Part shown: piece after piece, positions 150 through 58,338 of the stretch
How the letters are laid out: every line of letters starts with the position of its first letter
Numbering within the stretch: the first letter of the stretch is position 1
IMG/VR virus record: IMGVR_UViG_3300036823_000156
Span: 19,960-83,959 of that record
Source: a virus
DNA: 64,000 nucleotides
Direction: 5' to 3' (one strand)
Position numbers and translations under genes: made by a program
The notes under the pieces: generated by a model
What the model was told of the DNA's origin: nothing
Databases searched by the model: none
What the model saw: only the letters and a program-made list of their open reading frames with translations

Positions 150-604
150 ACGAACTCCTCTGGGTCCTGCACTACCTCGACGACATCCGCAGCGATCTGT
201 CCGTGTACCACAGGATCGAGGATCTGGAATGGATGCCCTCGGACACCTTCTTCGTGTACGCGGAGCGGATGGGCGCCTACAAGGGCGTGCTGTACGCGCA
301 GATGCAGATCGACGCACAGCAGGCCGGCGTCGCAGCACCACCGCAACAGGCTGCGGCCACGCCGAAGCAGCGCTACCGCCCGCACGACGTGATCGAACGG
401 GCGGACGACGGCACGAAGATCCTCAACGGCGTGGCGGTCGACGAGGAGGACATTCCACTGTGGACCAAGAAGTTGCCCGGGGCCCAGGGCAAGGTCGAGG
501 TGATCCCCGGGGACATCGGGTCCATCGGGTTCAGCGAGGCGTTCCGTGGCCAGTTCAGCTACGCACGGGTGAGCAAGCAGGAGCAGGAGGCGGTCGGTGA
601 CTAG
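122..604 (+). CDS. Tail assembly chaperone -1 frameshift extension (gpGT-like)
   Basis: The -1 frame from C CCA AAA is open (RRIEERINELLWVLHYLDDIRSDLSVYHRIEDL...) and continuous with ORF 203..604. Confidence 0.8.
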   Translation, partial: PKRRIEERINELLWVLHYLDDIRSDLSVYHRIEDLEWMPSDTFFVYAERMGAYKGVLYAQMQIDAQQAGVAAPPQQAAATPKQRYRPHDVIERADDGTKILNGVAVDEEDIPLWTKKLPGAQGKVEVIPGDIGSIGFSEAFRGQFSYARVSKQEQEAVGD

Positions 605-3600
605 CGCGGGAGGCTCCTCCTCGTTCAAGATCGCCGACGCCTACGTCCTGGTCGGCGCGAACCTGGACGAGCGCTCCGTCGAGCAGACGGTCACCTCGGC
701 GCAGCGGCAGATCAGCCGGTCCGCGCTGAACCTCAAGGTCACGCTGGACAAGCGCAGCCTCAACGACGCCGTCACCACGACGCGGGCGTCGGTCAAGGAA
801 CTCGGGACCGATCTCAAGGTCAAGTTGGGGATCAACCTCGACGACAAGTCCCTGGCCGACACCGCGTTGGCCGTGGAGGCCGCGGCCGACACGATGAGTC
901 GCACGTCCGGGGTCAACCTGCACGTGGGCCTGGACAACACCTCGGTGCTGCGCGCGGGCGCCGACCTCAAGGCCGTCACCCGCGTCATGGGCACCCAGGA
1001 CGCGATCAACCTGCGGGTCAACAGCTCCGGGCTGTCCGAAGCCGACAACGAGGTGCAGTCCTTTTCCAACCGCTGGACGCGCCTGGCCAAGTTGATCACA
1101 GCCGGCGCACTGATCGGCGCCGGTCCGCTCGAAGCGGTCGGCCTGGCCACGGTCATCGCCGGGTTCGGTGCGCTGGCCATCGCGGCCGAGGCCAGCAACA
1201 AGGACGTCAAGGCCTCGTTCAAGGACATGACCGCCTCCGCCAAGCAGACGGCGGCCGAGGGGTTCTCGCCGGTCATCCCCCAGCTGGTGTCGCTGGGCGA
1301 GCAGGCCAAGACCACGATCAGCGGTCTGGAACCCGCCTTCCAGCGTGCCGGCCTGGCGATCTCGCCGATCCTGGGCACCATCGGCACCGATCTGCTGGAA
1401 TCCGTGCAACGCGGCGTCGAGGGGGCCGAGCCCCAGCTGAACAAGCTGCCGCCGCTGGCCAGCTCGATCGGCAACTCGTTCAACACCCTCGAACACGGTG
1501 TCGGCGGGTTCGTCAACAACATCGACGTCAGCAAGGCCGTACACGGCTGGGACACGCTGACCGTCGCGGTCGGGCAGCTGCTGCCGGCCCTGTCGATCTT
1601 GCTGAACACCGCCGAGCCGGTCGGCTCCGCGCTGTTGCAGATCGTGGGCGGCGCGGTCTCCACCCTGTTCCGCGAGATCGGCGAACTCAACCCGGAGATG
1701 CAGGCCGCCGGGGCGATCTTCTCCTTCATCGGCCCCGCCATCTCGGTGGTCGGGCCGCCGCTGCTGGCGGTCGCCGCCGGCACGCGGCTACTGACCGGTA
1801 GCTGGACCGACTTCGCCGGGGCCGGCACCAAGCTCAAGGGCATCGTCACCGGCATGCCCGGCATCATCGAGCAGTTGGGCCAGAAGTTCGGCTACACCAC
1901 GGCCGCCGCCAACCAGGCGGCCAAGGCGTCGGCCGAGGTCGCGCTGAACACCGCGCTGGAGTCCAAAGCGGTCGACGAGGCCGTCGTCGCCGAGGCGGCC
2001 GACGCGGTGGCCCAGGAGGACAGCGCCAAGAACGCGCAGTCCCTCTCGATCGCCAAGAAGCAACTGGCCGCGTCCACGGTCGAAGCCACCGAGGCGCAGA
2101 AGGCGTTCGACGCCACCACCGAGGAGTCCACCTTCGCGATGGGACCGCTCGGCCTGGCGCTGGGTGTGGTGACGGCCGGACTGCTGCTGTTCTCCGGTCG
2201 GTCCAAGGACGCCTCCGAGCCCACCCAGGACCTGACCGCCGACCTGGAGCGCCTGGCCGCCGCCGCGCCCGGTGCGACGCAGGGCATCCTGGCCGGCGAC
2301 CCGGCGCTGCAGAAGCTGATCACGGGCGCCAAGAACGCCGGTGTCAACGTGCAGGGCCTGCTGTCGGCCTACCAAGGCGGCACCGGCCCGCTGGACGCGT
2401 TCACCAAACAGCTGCAGAACCAGCAGAAGCAGCTGGGGGACACGCAGGTGTCGATGTCCTCGGTGACCACCGGGATCAAGCTGGGCAACGACCCGGCCGT
2501 GAAGTTCTCCGCCTCCATCGCCCAGTTGGCGGCGGCCGGCAAGCAGCTGTCGGAGAACAACGTCAAGCTGTCACCGCAGCAGCAGGCGCAGATCGCGCAG
2601 TACCGCAACCTCCAGGCCGTCACGGCACAGCTGGGCGTGTCGCAGAAGGCCCTCGCCGGCAATCAGGCCGCGGGCGCCGCGGTCACGCAGACCACGCAGC
2701 AGACGCAGACCCAGTGGAACCACACGATGACCGAGGCCAGCTCCATCACCTCGGCCTACGGCGGCAACCTCACCAGCACCGCGCTGCAGATGCAGAACTT
2801 CGCCGCACAGCAGAAAAACGGCCAGTTCTCGATGGAGGACTTCGTCAAGGCGCAGGTCACCGCGGCCGGCGGGTTCCTGCAGGCACAGGCACAACAGCAG
2901 CAACTCAACGCCGCGGTCACCCAGACCGCCCAAGCCCAGGTGCAGGCCGGTCAGTCGGTCGCGTCGGCCAAGAACCAGGAGCAGCAGGCGATTCTGCAGG
3001 TGGCCGACGCCGAGCACAGCGCGGCACAGTCCGCCGGTGCGGTCACCGACGCCGAGCACTCCTACCAGCAGTCCATTCAGGCCGTGTCCGACGCGAAAAC
3101 CGCGGTGGTCAAGGCACAGCAGCAGGAACACACCGCGCAGCTTCAGTACACACAGGACCTGGCCGCCGCACGCGCCGCCGAACTGGCGCTCTCGGCCGCC
3201 CGCAAGCAGGCGGTGCTGGACCTGCAGGCCGAGCAGCGCCAGGTGCTCGATCAGGGCGACACGGTGGCCCAGGCCGAGTTGCAACTGTTCGACGCACAGC
3301 AGGCGGTCAACAACGCCGGCCTGGCCAACAGCACACTGAAGCTGTCCGACCTGGCCAACACCAAGAACCTCAACACCGCCAACGAACAGTCCTACCAACT
3401 GCTGCTCTCGCTGTCCGAGGCGCAGCACGGACTCAACGACGCCAAGGCCCAACAGGCCCAAGTGGACAGTCAGAACGCCGCCGACCAGAAGAAGGGCGTC
3501 TCGGGCAGCCAGGACGTGCTGACCGCGCAGCAGAACATCGCCCAGGCGCAGAACCAGGTCCAGCAGTCGCAGCAGCAACTGGTGGACAGCAAGGATTCGG

Positions 3601-15960: not shown

Positions 15961-18345
15961 TCAGGCGTTGGAGCCGACGAGATCGTCATCGTCATCGTCG
16001 GCCTCTTCCGGCGCCTCATCCGGTTCCAGAACGCCGAGACTGTTCGCGTAAATGCTGACACCGAAACCACTCCCTACATCCTTCTTGGTGGCCGACACGA
16101 CGACCACGTCCACGTCCAGGTTGATCGCCTCGATCAGCTCGCGCATCGCCGGGAACGCCCACCGGTTGATCCGCACGTACACGTCCTCGTCGCCCTCGTC
16201 GTAGCCGAACAGCACGGCGCTGGTCAGCAGCTCGGGATCGCGCAACTGCTCCAGGATCTCGGCATCGGTGGCGTCCGGGTTGTCGCCGTACTTGCGCTGC
16301 TTCTCCAGTTCGTTGTCGAAGCGGATCTTGCGGATGAAACCGATCCACACCACCGGGTGCTCGCCCTTGGGCGGCATGTCGTTGGAGCTGTGCGTGGGGA
16401 TTGGCAGGCCGGCGAAGTCGGGCAGGCCGCGTCGGATGCCCTCGCGGTACTCGTGCAGCAGGTGGCTGACCCGGTGCAGCTCGAACGGGTCCTCGGCGGT
16501 GGCGAAGCCGATCATGGTGGCGATCGTCTTGGGCCCGATCCCCTTGACCGGTTTGTAGTCCCCCCAGTCGAACGCGCCGTAGCGGCGCTGCTCGGTCAGC
16601 GACCGCTCGACGGCCTCGCGGTGGGCCAGCATGGCCAGCGCGGTCGTCTCGCCGACGTTCGGGATCTGCAGCAGCCCGGCCCGCAGCGCGCCCGCCTCGC
16701 CCTCGGCCAGCAGGGCGGGGGCGGGCTCCCAGGACAGGTCGGACACCTGCGCGTCGGGGGCCAGGATGGTGATGCCGTGGTGCAGGATGTCCTGCATCAG
16801 GCGGGGTGTCTTCTCCTTGCCGGTCTTGGGCAGCTGGCCGGCGTAGAAGGCCAGCGGGTGGTTGGTCTTCAGCCACATCGACCAGTACGCGACCATGGAG
16901 TACGAGCAGGCGTGTGCGTAGTTGAACAGGTACTTGCTGGCCGTGGTCATCCTGGCCCAGATGCGCCGGGCGTCCTCACCGGAGATGCCGTGGTTGCTGG
17001 CGGCGCCGCGCTCGAAGGCGTCGTACAACTCGTTGAACGCGGCCTCGCCCAGCTTGCCGGAGATGATCCGCCGGATCCGGCCGATCTCGGTGCCGGAGAA
17101 CCCGCCGATCTGGGCCAGGATGCGGAACACCTGCTCCTGGAAGATCACCGTGCCGTAGCTGTGCCGGGTGATCTCGTCGATCACCGGATGCACCGACGGG
17201 ATGGCCAGCCGCCCGTGCCGACGGGCGACGTAGGCGGTGTACTCGCCCGATCCCAGCGGACCGGGCCGGGCCAGGGCGCTGATGTCGACGAGGTGGCGGA
17301 AGTCCTCGGGCTCGACGGCCCGGCAGACGCCGCGCTGGGTGCGTCCCTCGAACTGGAAGATGCCGGTCAGGTCGCCGTCCCGGAACGCGTCGAGCACCTT
17401 CTGGTCGTTGAGCGGGACGCGGTAGAGCTCCTCCAGCGGCATGTCGATGATCTTCAGTGACTGGCCGATCATGCCCATCGTGGTCAGTCCCAGGAAGTCG
17501 ATCTTCGTCATGCCGAGGTACTCGGCCGACTTCTTGTCCGCCGCCACGACGGAGACCTGGTGCTTGGTGGCCTTGGTCTTGCCGATCTCGCGGGTGTACG
17601 TGGCGCACACGTCGGTGATGGGTCGCGAGGAGATGACGATGCCGGCGGCGTGCACCGACATGCCGCGGTAGTCGCCCTCGAAGTTCTCGGCCTCCCGGAT
17701 CTGCGGCCACTTCTGAGCGATCTCGCGGGCCTTGGGGAACAGCTCGAACACGTCGTGCACCGAGTCGTTCTGGCGCGGGTCCCCGGCCTCCCGGTCGATG
17801 ATCAGGCCGGCCACCGTCTCGACCGCCCACTTCGGAATCCGGTAGACGCGGCCGATGTCCTTGATCGCCGTCTTGCCGCGGAACCGGGCGTAGTTGGCGA
17901 TGTTGCCGACGCAGTCCTCGCCGTACTTGCGCTTGGCGTACTCGACCATCTCGTGCCGGCGGTCGTCGGCGAAGTCGATGTCGATGTCGGGCATGTCGTC
18001 GCGGGTGGGGTCCAGGAACCGTTCGAACAGCATGTTGGGGTAGCGCATCGGGTTGATCTCGGTGATGCGCAGCAGATAGCACACCAGGCTGGCGGCGGCC
18101 GACCCCCGGCCTGGCCCGACGGCGATGCCGTGGTCCTTGGCGTGGCGCACCAGATCTGAAACGATCAAGAAGTAGTCGCAGAAGTCCTTGCCGACGATCG
18201 TGTCCATCTCGTAGTGGATGCGCGTGGTCACGTCGGCGGCGTGCTGCCCGAGGAACCCGTCGTGCGGTGCCCGGAACGTCCAGCCGTTGCGCAGCCAGGT
18301 CCATAGCAGCTCGGTGGAGTTGACCGGCTGGGACGCCGTGGTCAT
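15961..18345 (-). CDS. dnaE: DNA polymerase III alpha (DnaE), polymerase/HhH/OB part of a split gene
   Basis: GPGRGSAAASLV, MPDIDIDF, SVHAAG, KIDFLGL, GIFQF, FNYAHA. Confidence 0.93.
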   Translation of the reverse strand: MTTASQPVNSTELLWTWLRNGWTFRAPHDGFLGQHAADVTTRIHYEMDTIVGKDFCDYFLIVSDLVRHAKDHGIAVGPGRGSAAASLVCYLLRITEINPMRYPNMLFERFLDPTRDDMPDIDIDFADDRRHEMVEYAKRKYGEDCVGNIANYARFRGKTAIKDIGRVYRIPKWAVETVAGLIIDREAGDPRQNDSVHDVFELFPKAREIAQKWPQIREAENFEGDYRGMSVHAAGIVISSRPITDVCATYTREIGKTKATKHQVSVVAADKKSAEYLGMTKIDFLGLTTMGMIGQSLKIIDMPLEELYRVPLNDQKVLDAFRDGDLTGIFQFEGRTQRGVCRAVEPEDFRHLVDISALARPGPLGSGEYTAYVARRHGRLAIPSVHPVIDEITRHSYGTVIFQEQVFRILAQIGGFSGTEIGRIRRIISGKLGEAAFNELYDAFERGAASNHGISGEDARRIWARMTTASKYLFNYAHACSYSMVAYWSMWLKTNHPLAFYAGQLPKTGKEKTPRLMQDILHHGITILAPDAQVSDLSWEPAPALLAEGEAGALRAGLLQIPNVGETTALAMLAHREAVERSLTEQRRYGAFDWGDYKPVKGIGPKTIATMIGFATAEDPFELHRVSHLLHEYREGIRRGLPDFAGLPIPTHSSNDMPPKGEHPVVWIGFIRKIRFDNELEKQRKYGDNPDATDAEILEQLRDPELLTSAVLFGYDEGDEDVYVRINRWAFPAMRELIEAINLDVDVVVVSATKKDVGSGFGVSIYANSLGVLEPDEAPEEADDDDDDLVGSNA

Positions 18346-18500
18346 CGCCACCCCCAACTCCGGTCGAGGTGCCGGCGGGCCGCCGCGCGAGCGTGGATCT
18401 GTTGCCACCACATGTGATTGGCCGTCATGTCGCCGCGCAGGCGAGCCTCCTTGGCCTGGGAGCGCATGTAGTTGTACCAATTCGTGTTGACGCGAGCCAT
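18342..18500 (-). CDS. Small 52-aa ORF inserted between the two DnaE halves
   Basis: TGATG and ATGA overlaps with both neighbours; MARVNTNWYNYM... Confidence 0.55.
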   Translation of the reverse strand: MARVNTNWYNYMRSQAKEARLRGDMTANHMWWQQIHARAAARRHLDRSWGWR

Positions 18501-19429
18501 CACCACTCCAGGTCGTCGGTGGTGCCGGGGAAGCGCACGCGCTCGGTCTTGGGCAGCGTGACCTGGCAGCGCTGGCCGATCTCCTCGGAATTGCAGATGG
18601 CTTCCCACGCCTGTGTGCGGGTCAGGCCGGTGGCCATCAGCTGTTCGCCGATCTGCTTGTCGGACAGGGGGTAGGAGAGACGAATGTCGTATTCCCAGCC
18701 CGCGTCCTGGCTTTCCACCGTGCCGCCGCGCAGTGCCGCGTGAAGGGCCACCTGGACGCGATTCTGCTCTGGAAGGAGATAGTGAACGTCTGCGGTGGCA
18801 ACGAGGGGAATGCCGAACTCGGCGGAAAGCTCAGCGTAAATCCCGTTGAGTGTGCGACAACGTCGCAGTTCAGGGAAGCGCTGTACTTCGAGGTAGTACC
18901 CGTCGCCGTAGACGTCGAGGAACCAATTGATGACAGCTCTCGCTCGATCAAGGTCGAGATCGCTCGCCGTATCGCGTTGCTCACCAAGACTTTTGCCTCC
19001 CAGCAGGGTGCAGGCCAGCAGCGAGTCGGCGCAGCCCGAGGTGGAGATGAGGCCCTCGCCGTGCGCGGCCAGCATGTCGGAGTGGCAGGTGGGGAACTTG
19101 GAGGCCGCGGTCACGCCCAGGGTGGCCCACGACCCGGCCATCAGCTGGCACAGGTTGCGGTACCCGGCCAGGTTCTCCGCGACCACGGTCTGGTGCCACT
19201 TGCGCTTCTCGTTCGGCGGGGCGGTGTACAGCTCGCAGCCGAACGCCGGGTGCAGCCCGACGGCGAGCAGTTCCTTCTCCCATAGCGGGTGCGCCGTGGT
19301 GTTGCCATGGTCGGTGATGGCCGCGCCGGTGTAACCCAACTCGGCCAGCCGGGCGGCGTGCTCCTTCGGCGTCTTCGCCCCGTCGCCATAGCTGTAGGTG
19401 CAGTGCGTGTGGACACTGAAGAAGCGCAT
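18500..19429 (-). CDS. dnaE: DnaE N-terminal PHP domain (stand-alone)
   Basis: HTHCTYSYGDG, AITDHG, GCELY, YYLEVQ, ATADVHY. Confidence 0.9.
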   Translation of the reverse strand: MRFFSVHTHCTYSYGDGAKTPKEHAARLAELGYTGAAITDHGNTTAHPLWEKELLAVGLHPAFGCELYTAPPNEKRKWHQTVVAENLAGYRNLCQLMAGSWATLGVTAASKFPTCHSDMLAAHGEGLISTSGCADSLLACTLLGGKSLGEQRDTASDLDLDRARAVINWFLDVYGDGYYLEVQRFPELRRCRTLNGIYAELSAEFGIPLVATADVHYLLPEQNRVQVALHAALRGGTVESQDAGWEYDIRLSYPLSDKQIGEQLMATGLTRTQAWEAICNSEEIGQRCQVTLPKTERVRFPGTTDDLEW

Positions 19430-19659
19430 CACGGGTGTTTCGTTTGGTACTGCAGGACGGCGGCCTCCATCTTGCGGGCCGCGTTGACGATCGAGGTGCG
19501 GGCGCCGCGCACGCGGTGATCGTCGTGGGAGGCGCCGTCGATCAGCAGGTTGTCCAGGCGACCGTGCGCCATGGCCCACACGAAGATCGGCTTCTTCAGT
19601 TCCTCGTACAGGTCTTCGACGCGTTCGACGAGCTGCTCGTCCGGTGTTGGTGTCGACAT
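19429..19659 (-). CDS. Hypothetical protein
   Basis: GAGGAG RBS; coupled to the PHP gene. Confidence 0.6.
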   Translation of the reverse strand: MSTPTPDEQLVERVEDLYEELKKPIFVWAMAHGRLDNLLIDGASHDDHRVRGARTSIVNAARKMEAAVLQYQTKHP

Positions 19660-19670
19660 GGTCGTGCTCC

Positions 19671-20240
19671 TCACGTCTCGACGACTTCGTTGGCGCTGGC
19701 CCGGTAGGTCAGCTCCTCGGGAAGCTTCAGGGCGCCTCGGCGCAGCAGTCGGATGTCGTTGGTGGACAGTCGCAGCCGGTAGCCCCGAGGGGCGCCCTGC
19801 ACGAGCTGTGGCCACAGGATGGGCATGTCGGCCGGAGTGCCCGGCCACTGCGGCGCGTACTCACGACGGGACCGGATCAGCTGGCTGCGGTGGCTGCGGT
19901 GGATGTGCAGGTCGCCCAGCCACGGCGGGTTCAGCAGCTCGTCGCCGCCGTTCTCCAGATCCGTCCCGGTGGTGGCCAGCAGATCGGTGTCCAGGTCGGG
20001 CAGTGAGTGGTTCCGGTTGGTGACCAGCTCGTTGGCCATCATCAGGCCGTGGATGCACAGCCGCCACTGGTACGGCCCCCACATCGAGATCGCCAGAAAC
20101 CGCTTGTTCGTGGGAGAGTCGGGAGGCGCGAGGAGCAGCCGCAGCACCTCGGTCGAGGTCTCCACCTGCTCGACCAGATCCTCGTCAGTCAGGGACTGGG
20201 CCGCTTTGCCCGGCTCGATATGCGGCATCCAGGTGATCAT
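19671..20240 (-). CDS. Pyrimidine-dimer DNA glycosylase-like (MSMEG_6728 family)
   Basis: MITWMP...A..L...L..Q.E, MW.PY, PPWLGD..IHRSHRS.L pattern. Confidence 0.7.
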   Translation of the reverse strand: MITWMPHIEPGKAAQSLTDEDLVEQVETSTEVLRLLLAPPDSPTNKRFLAISMWGPYQWRLCIHGLMMANELVTNRNHSLPDLDTDLLATTGTDLENGGDELLNPPWLGDLHIHRSHRSQLIRSRREYAPQWPGTPADMPILWPQLVQGAPRGYRLRLSTNDIRLLRRGALKLPEELTYRASANEVVET

Positions 20241-55040: not shown

Positions 55041-55494
55041 GCTGCTGGACGTCATCATGGTGCTGGAAGTTCTGGTCGCCGCGCTGGGGCTGGTCTTCGG
55101 AATGGTCAACCACGGCGCCGTCTACGGGACGCGCCAACACCTCTACACCCAGTTCCGCGGTGGCGCGGTCGTCCTGGTGATCTTCGCGTTCCTGGCCTAC
55201 GGCCTGTGGATCACCTACGCGTTGGCCACCGGGCTGTGGCAGTTCATCGTGATCTTCACGCTGCCGCTGGCGCTCAAGATGGCCTACCGGCGGATCGGCC
55301 GCACGCGCGGTCGCAAGGCCGACGCCGTGGCGATCGTCCCGGCCAAGATCGGCACCGTGATCCTGTGCGAGGACCGGGTGTTCCGGTTGGACAGCATGCA
55401 GGCCGACGGCCGGTTCGACACCGCCTCGCTGATGTTCGTCAGCTCGGGCCCGAAGTACCCGACGGTGGTGGATGCCCGTGCTGCGCAAAGGTGA
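55033..55494 (+). CDS. Membrane protein
   Basis: Three TM segments. Confidence 0.55.
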   Translation: MSELLDVIMVLEVLVAALGLVFGMVNHGAVYGTRQHLYTQFRGGAVVLVIFAFLAYGLWITYALATGLWQFIVIFTLPLALKMAYRRIGRTRGRKADAVAIVPAKIGTVILCEDRVFRLDSMQADGRFDTASLMFVSSGPKYPTVVDARAAQR

Positions 55495-55779
55495 GGTGCT
55501 CGATGCCGACCTGCCGATGTCCTGGGCACTGGAGGTGACCGGGCGGACGCTGCTGCTGCTGTGCCGCGACGTCGAGCCCGGCGAGGGCCTGGGTGCCGTT
55601 CTGGTGCGGGTGATCCGGGGCTACCCGAACGACCACATGGGCTGGGTGGCCGTGCCCAAGACGCTGTTCGACCGACAGCTCTGGGTCGACCTGCGGCCCC
55701 TGCTGCCGCTGCGGCTGGTGCCGCGCCTGGAAGTGCTGATCGCGTGCGACAAGCACAACACGGAATTCGAGGAGCTGCT

Positions 55780-57972
55780 GTGCCTGTCGAACTGACCGAG
55801 GAACAGACCAAGGCGGTGGACCTGTGTGCCAGCCGCCTGCGGTCCAGGATCCCACTGTCCACCTTGTTCGGTCCGGCTGGCTGTGTGGCCGGGGAGACCG
55901 AGCTGTGGGACCCGGTGGCGATGCGTGGACGCCGCATCGACGAGTTGGAAGCGACAGGGGCTCGCCCCTGGGTGCAGACGCTCGCCGGTCCGGTATTGGC
56001 CGAGGTGCCGTTCAAGAAAGGTGTCGCGGATCTCTATCGAATCGTGCTGGCTTCCGGGCGATCTCTTGTCGCGACCGCTGATCATCTGTGTCTGACGCCA
56101 GACGGATGGACCTTCGTCGGTTCGCTCGCGCCGGGCAAGGCACTCCTGTCAGGGTCGCCTTCAGATGAGCCGCGTTGTTCGGAAACAGCCGAAGGTTGCA
56201 TGGATCGTTGTTGCTCGTGTTCTGGTCAATATGATCCACTACTTCCTCGTGGGTCAGTGGCCGACCGAGCGTTTTCGCCATCACGATCCGGTGTTCTCGC
56301 ACATATCCATGGCTGTTCGCCTCGGGATGACCAGGAACCCACAGCAGGACGTAGCCGTGCTTGTCCAGCACCCGACCCCCGCGCCATGCCGGATTCGAGC
56401 GGCCCGATGTGTTGCGTGCCATCGGATGGTCGCTGGGCGGCTGCCGCCACACTGGTCGCTGGATGCCGTGACGAGTCAGGTAGCTGCGAACAGCACTCTG
56501 GTTCGTCCCAACGGTCCGACCGATGGCATCGAGCGTCGCGCCTGCTTCCGCCATCCGCACGACTACTTCGTGTTGCTTCTCGCACGCACCCACTCGGCCG
56601 TGTCGGGACCAGTGCGAGTGATCGCGCGAGACATCTCGCGCTTTCAGGCCGTGGCGTTTCAGGTATTTATGCACCGTTGAGCGGTCGACGTGCAGAAGCC
56701 CAGCTATCTGCAGAGCACTCCAGCCTTGGTCGATCTTGGACAGGATCTCCTCGTGGCGCAGCGCAAGATCAGGCGATCGGCGGCGTTGTCTCTCATTATC
56801 GGTCACAGTGGGAACCTATCATCAGTGTCAGCTACGTGCGCACGGACACGTACTACGACCTGCATGTTCCTGGTGAGGAGCACTATCTGGCTGACGGAAT
56901 CTGGTCACACAACACGGGCAAGACCGAGGTGGCCCGGCACATCGCCGCGCGGCTGGGCGGGGACGTGGCGTTCTGCGCGCCGACCGGCAAGGCGGCGCTG
57001 GTGCTGCGCAACCGGGGCGTGCCGGCCAGCACCGTGCACTCGCTGATCTACCGGCCGCTGGGCGTGTCGCAGCGGATGCTGGAGGAGGCGCAGCGCAAGC
57101 TGGGCGACGCCGAACGCCGGGGCAACCAGCGGCTGTCCCTGGCGCTGCGGGCGGAGATCACCAAGCTGATCGAGATGGTCAACTCGCCCAAGTTCGTGCT
57201 GCGGGAGAAGGAGGAGGTCGGCCCCTACTCGGCCATCGTGGTGGACGAGTCCAGCATGGTCAGTGAGGAGATGCTGACCGACCTGATGTCCTTCGGCATC
57301 CCGGTGCTGGCGCTGGGGGACCCGGCCCAGCTGCCGCCCGTCAAGGCGACCACCCCGCTGGCCGAGGTCGGCTACCGGCCGACGGTGATGCTGACCCAGA
57401 TGCACCGCTTCGCGTTGGAGAGCCCGATCAACCGGCTGGCCACCGAGGTTCGGATGGCCCGCAACCCCCGGGCGATCAGTTCGTGGCTGCCGGAGGGCAG
57501 CGGCGTCAACATGGTCAGGACGTTCCTGTTCACCGACGAGCAGGCGGCCGGCCTGCTGGCCTGGGACCAGGTCCTGTGCGGACGCAACGCCACCCGTATC
57601 AGGTTGAACGCGCAGCTGCGTTCGATCAAGGGCCTGCCGCACAACGAGCTGGACGACGAGGACCGGATGATCTGCCTGCGCAACGACCCCCAGCACGACC
57701 TGGTCAACGGCGAGCAGTACACGGTGAAGGAGCTCGCCGCCAACGACGTCCCCGAACGGATGATCACCTCGGTCGAGGGCTGGACGGCCGAGAACGTACG
57801 CCCCCAGTTCGCGTTCGGCTACGTCTCCACCGTCCACAAGGCACAGGGCAGCGAGTGGGACAACGTGGTGATCTTCGACGAGAGCCAGATCTTCCGGCAG
57901 GACGACTGGAAGTGGCTCTACACCGGGATCACCCGCGCGGCCAAGGCGGTCTGCGTGGTGCGCTGTGCCTAG
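55780..57972 (+). CDS. RecD/Dda-like SF1B helicase with an intein in its Walker A
   Basis: GPAG|intein|TGKT, APTGKAA, STVHS, VDESSM, GDPAQLPPV, TVHKAQGSEW, YTGITRA. Confidence 0.9.
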   Translation: MPVELTEEQTKAVDLCASRLRSRIPLSTLFGPAGCVAGETELWDPVAMRGRRIDELEATGARPWVQTLAGPVLAEVPFKKGVADLYRIVLASGRSLVATADHLCLTPDGWTFVGSLAPGKALLSGSPSDEPRCSETAEGCMDRCCSCSGQYDPLLPRGSVADRAFSPSRSGVLAHIHGCSPRDDQEPTAGRSRACPAPDPRAMPDSSGPMCCVPSDGRWAAAATLVAGCRDESGSCEQHSGSSQRSDRWHRASRLLPPSARLLRVASRTHPLGRVGTSASDRARHLALSGRGVSGIYAPLSGRRAEAQLSAEHSSLGRSWTGSPRGAAQDQAIGGVVSHYRSQWEPIISVSYVRTDTYYDLHVPGEEHYLADGIWSHNTGKTEVARHIAARLGGDVAFCAPTGKAALVLRNRGVPASTVHSLIYRPLGVSQRMLEEAQRKLGDAERRGNQRLSLALRAEITKLIEMVNSPKFVLREKEEVGPYSAIVVDESSMVSEEMLTDLMSFGIPVLALGDPAQLPPVKATTPLAEVGYRPTVMLTQMHRFALESPINRLATEVRMARNPRAISSWLPEGSGVNMVRTFLFTDEQAAGLLAWDQVLCGRNATRIRLNAQLRSIKGLPHNELDDEDRMICLRNDPQHDLVNGEQYTVKELAANDVPERMITSVEGWTAENVRPQFAFGYVSTVHKAQGSEWDNVVIFDESQIFRQDDWKWLYTGITRAAKAVCVVRCA
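55882..56913 (+). mobile_element. Intein (344 aa)
   Basis: Starts CVAGET, block B ATADH, ends YYDLHV...HYLADGIWSHN followed by T+1. Confidence 0.92.
56012..56806 (-). CDS. HNH homing endonuclease with N-terminal HTHs, antisense within the intein
   Basis: NPAWRGG...GYV..HP.A...GYVREHR.VM...LGR.L...EVVDHID....NN...NL. Confidence 0.85.
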   Translation of the reverse strand: MTDNERQRRRSPDLALRHEEILSKIDQGWSALQIAGLLHVDRSTVHKYLKRHGLKARDVSRDHSHWSRHGRVGACEKQHEVVVRMAEAGATLDAIGRTVGTNQSAVRSYLTRHGIQRPVWRQPPSDHPMARNTSGRSNPAWRGGRVLDKHGYVLLWVPGHPEANSHGYVREHRIVMAKTLGRPLTHEEVVDHIDQNTSNNDPCNLRLFPNNAAHLKATLTGVPCPARANRRRSIRLASDTDDQRSRQEIARKPARFDRDPRHLS

Positions 57973-58338
57973 GTGGAAGTGGCGGCACAGCAAGGAAGTG
58001 CTGGACCGCATCGACACGCTGATCGGCCGGCGCTGCTGGCTGTGCGGTGCGGCGGGCGGTTTCTGCCGGGACGTGTGCCGGGTCGAGAGTGGCCGGCAGT
58101 GGGAGTTCCGAGTGAACATCCCGTCTGAGTACGTGGTCTGCGACGAGTCGAATGTCGCATCTCCCGAGGCAGTGGCCGCTTTCGAGCGGCGTCAGCGGGC
58201 CCCCGCGCCCGCTTTCCGGCGGCCACCCGTGATCAGCGTGCAGACGGGCCCGGCACGCATGTACGTGGCTGCTCCGGGCGATCCGGAATGGCACGACATC
58301 GGATGGACAACCAACGATCTCCTTGGAAGGAGTCTTTA

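Follow-up and report, generated by a model that had tools for sequence, protein, structure and literature searches.

The 64,000-nt stretch of viral DNA analyzed here (positions 19,960 to 83,959 of IMG/VR record IMGVR_UViG_3300036823_000156; hereafter the window) carries, inside a phage gene for a Dda/RecD-like helicase, what is probably a composite selfish element: two genes that occupy the two strands of one 1,032-bp segment, one for a self-splicing intein and the other for an HNH homing nuclease. The intein frame lies on the plus strand and interrupts the helicase Walker A motif, while the HNH gene occupies the minus strand of its middle part. Comparison with related loci, which were found in several unrelated ATPase genes, showed purifying selection on the HNH frame and selection against stop codons in the intein frame.

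An Intein Interrupts the Walker A Motif

A first-pass annotation, made by a model from the sequence, had proposed a 344-residue intein (C...HN/T) in the helicase Walker A, GPAG|TGKT. This was borne out at 55882-56913, and the insertion comprises the following parts:

55882-56913, plus strand: intein, 344 codons (1,032 bp), with Cys first and His-Asn last (SHN), then Thr; splits GPAG|TGKT
55882..56163, plus strand: N-terminal splicing lobe, residues 1-94, with Cys1 and block B (T65-A-D-H68)
56164..56793, plus strand: linker, residues 95-304 (210 codons), stop-free and non-conserved, the antisense reading of the HNH gene
56794..56913, plus strand: C-terminal splicing lobe, residues 305-344, with block F (D326) and block G (H343-N344)

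Among 15 related inteins five residues do not vary (Cys1, T65, H68, D326, and N344) and at least 90% have H343, while the +1 residue, Thr in the window, is Thr or Ser in the relatives. An AlphaFold model built on the family alignment gave a predicted local distance difference test score (pLDDT) of 93-98 for residues 1-94 and 305-344, and in a Foldseek search its top matches were mini-inteins (NpuDnaB, Mtu RecA, Ssp DnaB) at E 1e-7 to 1e-6, with target TM-scores reaching 0.82. The Pfam profile Intein_splicing (PF14890) scored 24.0 bits, below its gathering cut-off of 35.8, because the long linker splits the match; it is the fold and motif tests that carry the assignment. By these tests the insertion is a class-1 intein, with a mini-intein Hint fold and a disordered loop in the model, and it is predicted to splice. 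A search of the phage genome found no intein other than this one.

The stop-free middle had been described in the first-pass annotation as Ser/Arg/Cys-rich nonsense, and we came to the same view. Residues 95-304 have no Pfam or PHROG match, are rich in Ser (15%), Arg (12%), Ala (12%), Gly (10%), and Cys (5%), are non-conserved, and, over residues 95-303, were modeled at pLDDT <50 without secondary structure. GC content is, as had also been noted, lower within the intein (0.57-0.66) than in the flanks (0.65-0.73), and GC content at third codon positions (GC3) is 0.46-0.49 for the intein frame across the linker vs. 0.97 in the C-extein.

The sub-threshold Pfam score could be taken to mean that the insert does not splice, so that the helicase is inactivated or tolerates 344 additional residues in its P-loop. 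We consider this highly improbable. The catalytic residues are invariant among relatives down to about 32% identity in the splicing lobes, the Hint fold is predicted with confidence, and the frame is maintained under selection (see below). Moreover, an insert in GxxxxGK[ST] would abolish ATP binding, yet most members of the family sit in the essential terminase.

The Opposite Strand Encodes an HNH Endonuclease

The reverse-strand gene proposed in the first-pass annotation, with two helix-turn-helix (HTH) modules and an HNH domain, was confirmed by profile searches. The minus-strand open reading frame (ORF) matched HNH_3 (PF13392; 34.8 bits, E 1.3e-8, cut-off 24.8), HTH_23 (7.9e-8), and phrog_20891 (1.7e-23). 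In a search of the whole phage genome it scored 37.8 bits and was the only HNH_3 gene. Its features are:

56012-56806, minus strand: HTH-HTH-HNH endonuclease ORF, 264 codons plus stop, starting with GTG 56806
56471..56800, minus strand: two HTH modules, HNH residues about 3-59 and 74-112, with HTH_23 and Sigma70_r4_2 matches; pLDDT 80-93
56138..56413, minus strand: HNH catalytic core, HNH residues 132-223; pLDDT 89-96
56015..56137, minus strand: Arg/Ser-rich tail, HNH residues about 224-264, overlapping the intein N-terminal lobe including block B

The encoded protein shares 37-68% identity with the antisense HNH genes of 15 related inteins; short family members have the second HTH module only. 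In an alignment of 13 sequences 25 columns are invariant, including E171-H172-R173, H192, N200, N204, N211, and H214 of the core. The putative catalytic His and metal-binding Asn/His set (H172, N200, N204, N211, H214) is present, with the role of each residue presumed. The closest PDB fold of the whole model, found with a wider structural aligner, was I-HmuI (1u3e; Z 6.3, root-mean-square deviation 4.3, 80 residues aligned, 24% identity). A profile of the HNH alignment searched against PDB sequences gave a designed HTH repeat protein as its sole match.

The tail behaves differently from the rest of the gene. Over this region identity in the minus frame is 0.02-0.12 vs. 0.38-0.75 in the plus frame, and HNH residues 227-253 have pLDDT <50. 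Being non-conserved and predicted to be disordered, the tail looks like read-through to the next stop rather than functional dual coding. Every descriptive point of the first-pass annotation was confirmed, and this refines the one on the overlap of the tail with intein block B.

Two Frames in One Stretch of DNA Are Under Selection

In the element, position 1 of each HNH codon lies opposite position 1 of the intein frame. Among 13 non-redundant loci, divergence at positions 1, 2, and 3 of the HNH frame was 0.42, 0.39, and 0.63, respectively. Position 3 is the most variable, so the HNH frame is under purifying selection. In the intein frame the most variable codon position is 2, the one paired with HNH position 3. 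A map of conservation in bins showed the plus frame conserved at 55882-56121 and 56794-56913 and the minus frame at 56122-56601. As the HNH tail over block B is non-conserved and predicted to be disordered, true constraint in both frames is confined to short edge segments, each a few tens of bases long.

The phase of the two frames has a simple consequence: TC, TT, or CT at the end of an HNH codon, with A as the first base of the next, gives a stop on the plus strand. Synonymous resampling with the HNH gene's own codon usage predicted 5.4 stops in the plus frame where none is seen (P = 0.0005), and shuffling of codon order gave a probability of about 0 for a stop-free frame. For each of the 13 loci the probability was ≤0.03; the AT-rich relatives L015, L016, L020, and L026 are expected to have 7-12 stops and have none. 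Codon choice showed the same. At codons at risk, the window uses a stop-making synonym in 0 of 24 cases vs. 31 of 89 elsewhere, and across the family NTC, NTT, or NCT codons occur at 0 of 296 at-risk positions vs. 380 of 929 elsewhere (Fisher 4e-57). Phe followed by Ile, Met, Thr, Asn, or Lys, where no synonym avoids the stop, does not occur at all. As controls, four free-standing HNH homologs and a same-strand, out-of-frame copy in phage Filuzino have 5-17 stops in that antisense phase.

In a window of 66% GC, many long ORFs overlap, and the open intein frame might then be a by-product of base composition without any selection. One example is an antisense ORF of 404 codons (56905-58119, minus strand) over the helicase C-extein, which is not a gene and is open owing to its codon-aligned phase and the GC3 of 0.97. 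We give this explanation practically no credence. The artifact belongs to the codon-aligned phase, and the element has the position-1-opposite-1 phase, in which stops are expected; the AT-rich relatives, the codon-choice test, and the stops in the free-standing homologs refute it as well. The open intein frame is kept by selection against stops and is not an accident.

The Element Belongs to a Family Found in Unrelated ATPase Genes

A protein search retrieved this intein, nonsense middle included, from another type of helicase (P0004, P0005), a terminase large subunit (P0006), and an FtsK-like ATPase (P0012); these, and the helicase P0001, are known here from protein sequences. DNA searches added 25 further loci. 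Both intein ends were present in 17 loci; in every one the two halves share a frame that is free of stops from one to the other, and 15 of the 17 have a minus-strand HNH homolog, in one phase throughout. The remaining two are mini-inteins, L018 with 134 residues and L023 with 141. The insertion site is Walker A, G-x-x-x|[TS]-G-K-[ST], in every locus, and among ten C-exteins scanned all those with a Pfam match are terminase large subunits.

Identities of the splicing domain and of the HNH are correlated across the family (Mantel r = 0.82, p = 0.0002), indicating that intein and HNH travel together. One pair of loci compares an element with and without its nuclease: L023 and L026 share the extein and have splicing parts that are about 92% identical, with a 65-nt linker in the former and a 590-nt HNH cassette in the latter. 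The first-pass annotation had proposed that an HNH gene invaded a mini-intein. HNH-less relatives at the same site and the co-divergence agree with this, although the event may instead have been loss from a full element. Decay of the HNH is also seen. In L011 (Ga0075321_1017807, 489-1064, minus strand) a stop replaces the conserved Trp of the HNH motif NPAWRGGR and part of the HP-x-AN region is missing, and the intein frame nonetheless runs open for 272 codons. In P0001, the closest helicase relative, the N-terminal half of the HNH is apparently deleted, as judged from the in-frame reading. All stages of a homing cycle are thus visible: intact copies, a nonsense-mutated copy with the plus frame open (L011), a copy with an apparently truncated HNH (P0001), and mini-inteins (L018, L023).

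The antisense HNH could alternatively serve a role other than homing, as an HTH regulator, as a brake on the helicase through antisense transcription, or as the phage's own nuclease. Its two HTH modules and its transcription, convergent with the host gene, would fit such a role, and HNH proteins beside terminases are known packaging cofactors. We find this quite improbable, since the element sits in unrelated ATPase genes at one motif and also exists as HNH-less mini-inteins, which a selfish cassette fits better, and since HNH and intein diverge together.

The same layout is present in a cultured phage, Pseudoalteromonas phage PHS3 (L031; KX912252, record 18025-19644). Its minus-strand ORF reads ...GGAG|CVHPDT...VHHN|SGKS... 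straight through an annotated plus-strand 'HNH endonuclease', which is stop-free in the position-1 antisense phase and has 13-14 stops in the other two. In GenBank the pieces are labeled 'terminase large subunit', 'HNH endonuclease', and 'terminase small subunit'. PHS3 is therefore an example of how such an element is annotated, its terminase appearing as separate genes around a stand-alone endonuclease.

Two further HNH homologs were recorded. The first, L002 3989-4702 (IMGVR_UViG_3300033518_000071), has an AGGAG ribosome-binding site and 0 stops in the position-1 antisense phase vs. 6-8 in the others; it probably lies in a more divergent intein that was missed by the splicing-lobe queries. 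The second is a 169-codon homolog (NPNWRGGR...EHRHVM...DNRPANL) at L007 1399-1908, in the gp74 methyltransferase gene of Mycobacterium phage Filuzino, on the same strand as the methylase and in another frame. The in-frame reading over it is low-complexity Ser/Thr/Ala, with two nearly identical peptides, YEPVCVAVKP and FEPVVVARKP, on either side. The idea that this methylase carries an ancestral, in-frame HNH intein was rejected, because the HNH match uses a different frame of that strand from the annotated one.

Expression Signals and the Start Codon of the Window Copy

Minus strands were compared without gaps, anchored on the intein 3′ end. In seven loci (L006, L008, L009, L010, L012, L024, and L028) TATAAT, TAGAAT, or GATAAT stands exactly 6 nt before the HNH ATG, and TTGACG-like -35 boxes occur in L010 and L016. 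A strict TANNNT 5-8 nt upstream of the HNH ATG was found in 7 of 15 loci vs. 2.2% of all ATGs in those loci, an enrichment whose p-value is only indicative, as the loci are related by descent and the plus strand is coding there. PHS3, L002, and L014 have Shine-Dalgarno motifs in place of the -10 box. The distance of 6 nt between box and ATG suggests that the antisense HNH mRNA is leaderless in the relatives with a -10 box. Two sites of the window copy correspond to these signals:

56795..56822, minus strand: promoter-like site, ATGATA (56822-56817), 16-nt spacer, GATAAT (56800-56795)
56786..56788, minus strand: position of the family's conserved leaderless ATG, CAA (Gln) here, located by the ungapped minus-strand comparison and the protein alignment

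The promoter-like site is the only sigma-70-like match in 2 kb, where 0.1 would be expected, and it aligns with the TATAAT/TAGAAT boxes of the relatives. This match was also considered as support for a start at GTG 56806 and was rejected in that role, given that the GTG falls between the two hexamers.

Several observations weigh against our reading of the locus as a composite selfish element. The conserved ATG is CAA in the window copy. The only upstream start, GTG 56806, is situated between the -35 and -10 hexamers and has a weak AGG as its ribosome-binding site. The promoter argument from the relatives is confounded by coding constraint on the plus strand and by kinship of the loci. The stretch occurs in two soil DNA runs, which may be its source, and in no RNA run; in both DNA runs the locus is contiguous and near-identical, with no joint skipping the intein and no intein-free allele. 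In addition, Foldseek found no PDB match of the HNH model at E ≤ 0.001 (E 0.27), and the match to I-HmuI is moderate (Z 6.3).

With its ATG replaced by CAA, the HNH of the window may no longer be made. Alternatively, a shorter HNH may start from Met87 and would resemble the natural one-HTH forms. The window copy, intact in both frames without the family start codon, would be either very recently active or using GTG 56806. As to the first-pass proposal that a free HNH mobilizes the intein, mobilization of the window copy today is doubtful in view of the CAA and of the position of GTG 56806.

These points raise the possibility that the window copy is a post-homing relic, in which the intein splices and keeps the plus frame open, the HNH is untranslated and decaying, and nothing mobilizes the copy now. 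The lost start codon, an alternative GTG inside the promoter region, the existence of decayed relatives (L011, P0001) and of mini-inteins (L018, L023), and the lack of an intein-free allele in the two source soil runs are all consistent with it. Still, the HNH frame has no stop in its 264 codons and preserves each residue that is invariant in the family; the -10 box is also present, and the product from Met87 would resemble natural short forms. On balance we regard a relic as possible though rather unlikely, and prefer the composite element of intein and homing nuclease.

The Host Helicase and Its Surroundings

The source is an 84-kb IMG/VR phage record, about 92% complete, and the stretch is present in two soil-metagenome runs. 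When the locus was compared by megablast with 50,697 phage records, no match was obtained. The host gene consists of:

55561-57972, plus strand: helicase ORF, 803 residues, likely true start GTG 55783, within a block of plus-strand genes
55783..55881, plus strand: N-extein, 33 codons from the likely GTG start, its last residues GPAG being the first half of Walker A
56914..57972, plus strand: C-extein, from T+1 of TGKT (second half of Walker A) to the stop; GC3 0.97

The helicase matched phrog_325 (5e-71), AAA_30 (1e-19), and UvrD_C_2 (7e-16) and shares 34-38% identity with Dda-like helicases of many phages. Judged by these matches, the host protein is a Dda/RecD-like superfamily 1 helicase, whose Walker A is complete once the intein is removed. 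The start at GTG 55783 was deduced by comparison with the intein-free homolog P0003; the part of the ORF upstream of it overlaps another gene of high GC3 (55433-55792). The N-extein is collinear with the N-terminus of P0003 (...LTTLFGSAGTGKT), as are the exteins overall, and GPAG|TGKT of the window corresponds to GSAGTGKT in P0003. An intein-free target junction of the window helicase would read GGTCCGGCTGGC|ACGGGCAAGACC. A search of viral contigs for related loci with the helicase C-extein found nothing, and intein presence or absence among close helicase relatives was compared in three proteins only.

The closest homologs, P0002 and P0003 (54% identity), mark this lineage of helicases as a hot spot for inteins. 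The P-loop of P0003 is free of inteins, and the protein has instead a different large insert, with Cys first and Asn last, inside the C-terminal HK|SQGSE motif. In P0002 another intein, with the end ...THN|S, sits about three residues downstream of the insertion site in the window. Upstream of the helicase, gene orientation flips between about 53100 and 55000, from minus (up to ~53142) to plus (from ~55015), and this divergent region may hold early promoters.

Proposed Mechanism and Its Meaning

From the anatomy, homologies, predicted folds, purifying selection on the HNH frame, stop avoidance in the intein frame, and co-divergence, we infer splicing, antisense transcription, cleavage, and homing. 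A helicase precursor of about 729 residues would be translated straight through the linker. Lobes 1-94 and 305-344 would form the Hint domain, with the 210-residue linker looping out disordered where canonical inteins carry the endonuclease. Class-1 splicing through Cys1, T65-x-x-H68, D326, H343-N344, and Thr+1 would then join GPAG to TGKT and restore the P-loop. The I-HmuI-like HNH with its HTH modules would be made from its own promoter, within the antisense of the intein C-terminal lobe, in high-GC relatives from a leaderless mRNA. Upon co-infection, P-loop alleles lacking the intein would be nicked or cut by the HNH, and their repair would bring in the intein together with the HNH gene. 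A target in Walker-A-coding DNA would explain the presence of the element in terminases, helicases of several types, and other ATPases.

Tentatively, and with less than even confidence, we extend this to the whole family. The antisense-HNH inteins may form one large, still mobile family, in which the nuclease recognizes Walker-A-coding DNA and the element hops between unrelated ATPase genes (terminase, several helicases, FtsK-like), with promoter and leaderless start written in the antisense of the block-F codons. If so, a short stretch of DNA would hold three layers of information, namely splicing-domain codons, a promoter, and the HNH start, and convergent transcription would tie expression of the nuclease inversely to that of the host gene.

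The family offers a clean natural case of dual-strand coding with selection measurable on both strands. It supports the view that inteins gain endonucleases by invasion of free-standing genes, and it suggests a common landing site in P-loop-coding DNA, through which one element moves between unrelated essential genes. The window locus itself adds little beyond another member, save for the apparent loss of the start codon.

Comparison With Known Systems

The first-pass annotation, noting that intein endonucleases are normally in frame, had treated the antisense layout as new; antisense LAGLIDADG and VSR-like cases are, however, already published (Gosselin, Arsenault, and Gogarten, bioRxiv 10.1101/2025.01.02.630785). 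These authors describe four non-canonical kinds of intein, three of which are in-frame HNH, antisense LAGLIDADG, and antisense VSR-like. They credit the antisense LAGLIDADG to Gorbalenya (1998) and Gogarten (2002), with Synechocystis DnaX and a Chloroflexus SpoVR-like protein as examples, report antisense LAGLIDADG or VSR-like inteins in actinophages, and propose invasion by free-standing endonucleases, with P-loop sites as a route of extein switching. In a 2026 preprint (10.64898/2026.09.14.751524) the dnaX case is analyzed by frame-wise ratios of nonsynonymous to synonymous substitution (dN/dS) and its endonuclease is called a '+2 ORF', so that the two works differ on dnaX.

Our element shares with the antisense-endonuclease inteins of 10.1101/2025.01.02.630785 a separate opposite-strand ORF between the splicing blocks, a foldless in-frame reading, and an open extein frame, as well as the proposed origin by free-standing endonuclease invasion, the tendency to be missed by annotation, and P-loop extein switching. 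It differs from the LAGLIDADG and VSR-like cases in its nuclease, which is of HNH_3/I-HmuI-like type with HTH modules, and in its host, a Dda/RecD-like helicase. In the same work HNH is given as an in-frame domain only, and our literature search found no paper describing an antisense HNH in an intein. The antisense HNH is thus absent from the published non-canonical kinds and is the HNH version of a layout known for other nucleases. It adds a fifth architecture to the non-canonical inteins, one that is common in environmental phages and invisible to gene callers.

With canonical inteins the element shares a Hint domain interrupted at the same loop by endonuclease-coding DNA and the same presumed homing cycle. 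Unlike in canonical inteins, the endonuclease is outside the intein polypeptide and needs its own promoter and start codon, and the DNA is constrained in two frames. Among phage HNH homing endonucleases, the modeled HNH core moderately resembles that of I-HmuI, which is encoded within a group I intron in sense orientation; here, by contrast, the nuclease gene runs antisense to a protein-coding sequence that has to stay translatable. In collaborative homing, free-standing endonucleases adjoin endonuclease-less introns. The present element resembles that arrangement in that a separately expressed nuclease would mobilize a splicing element to which it is not fused.

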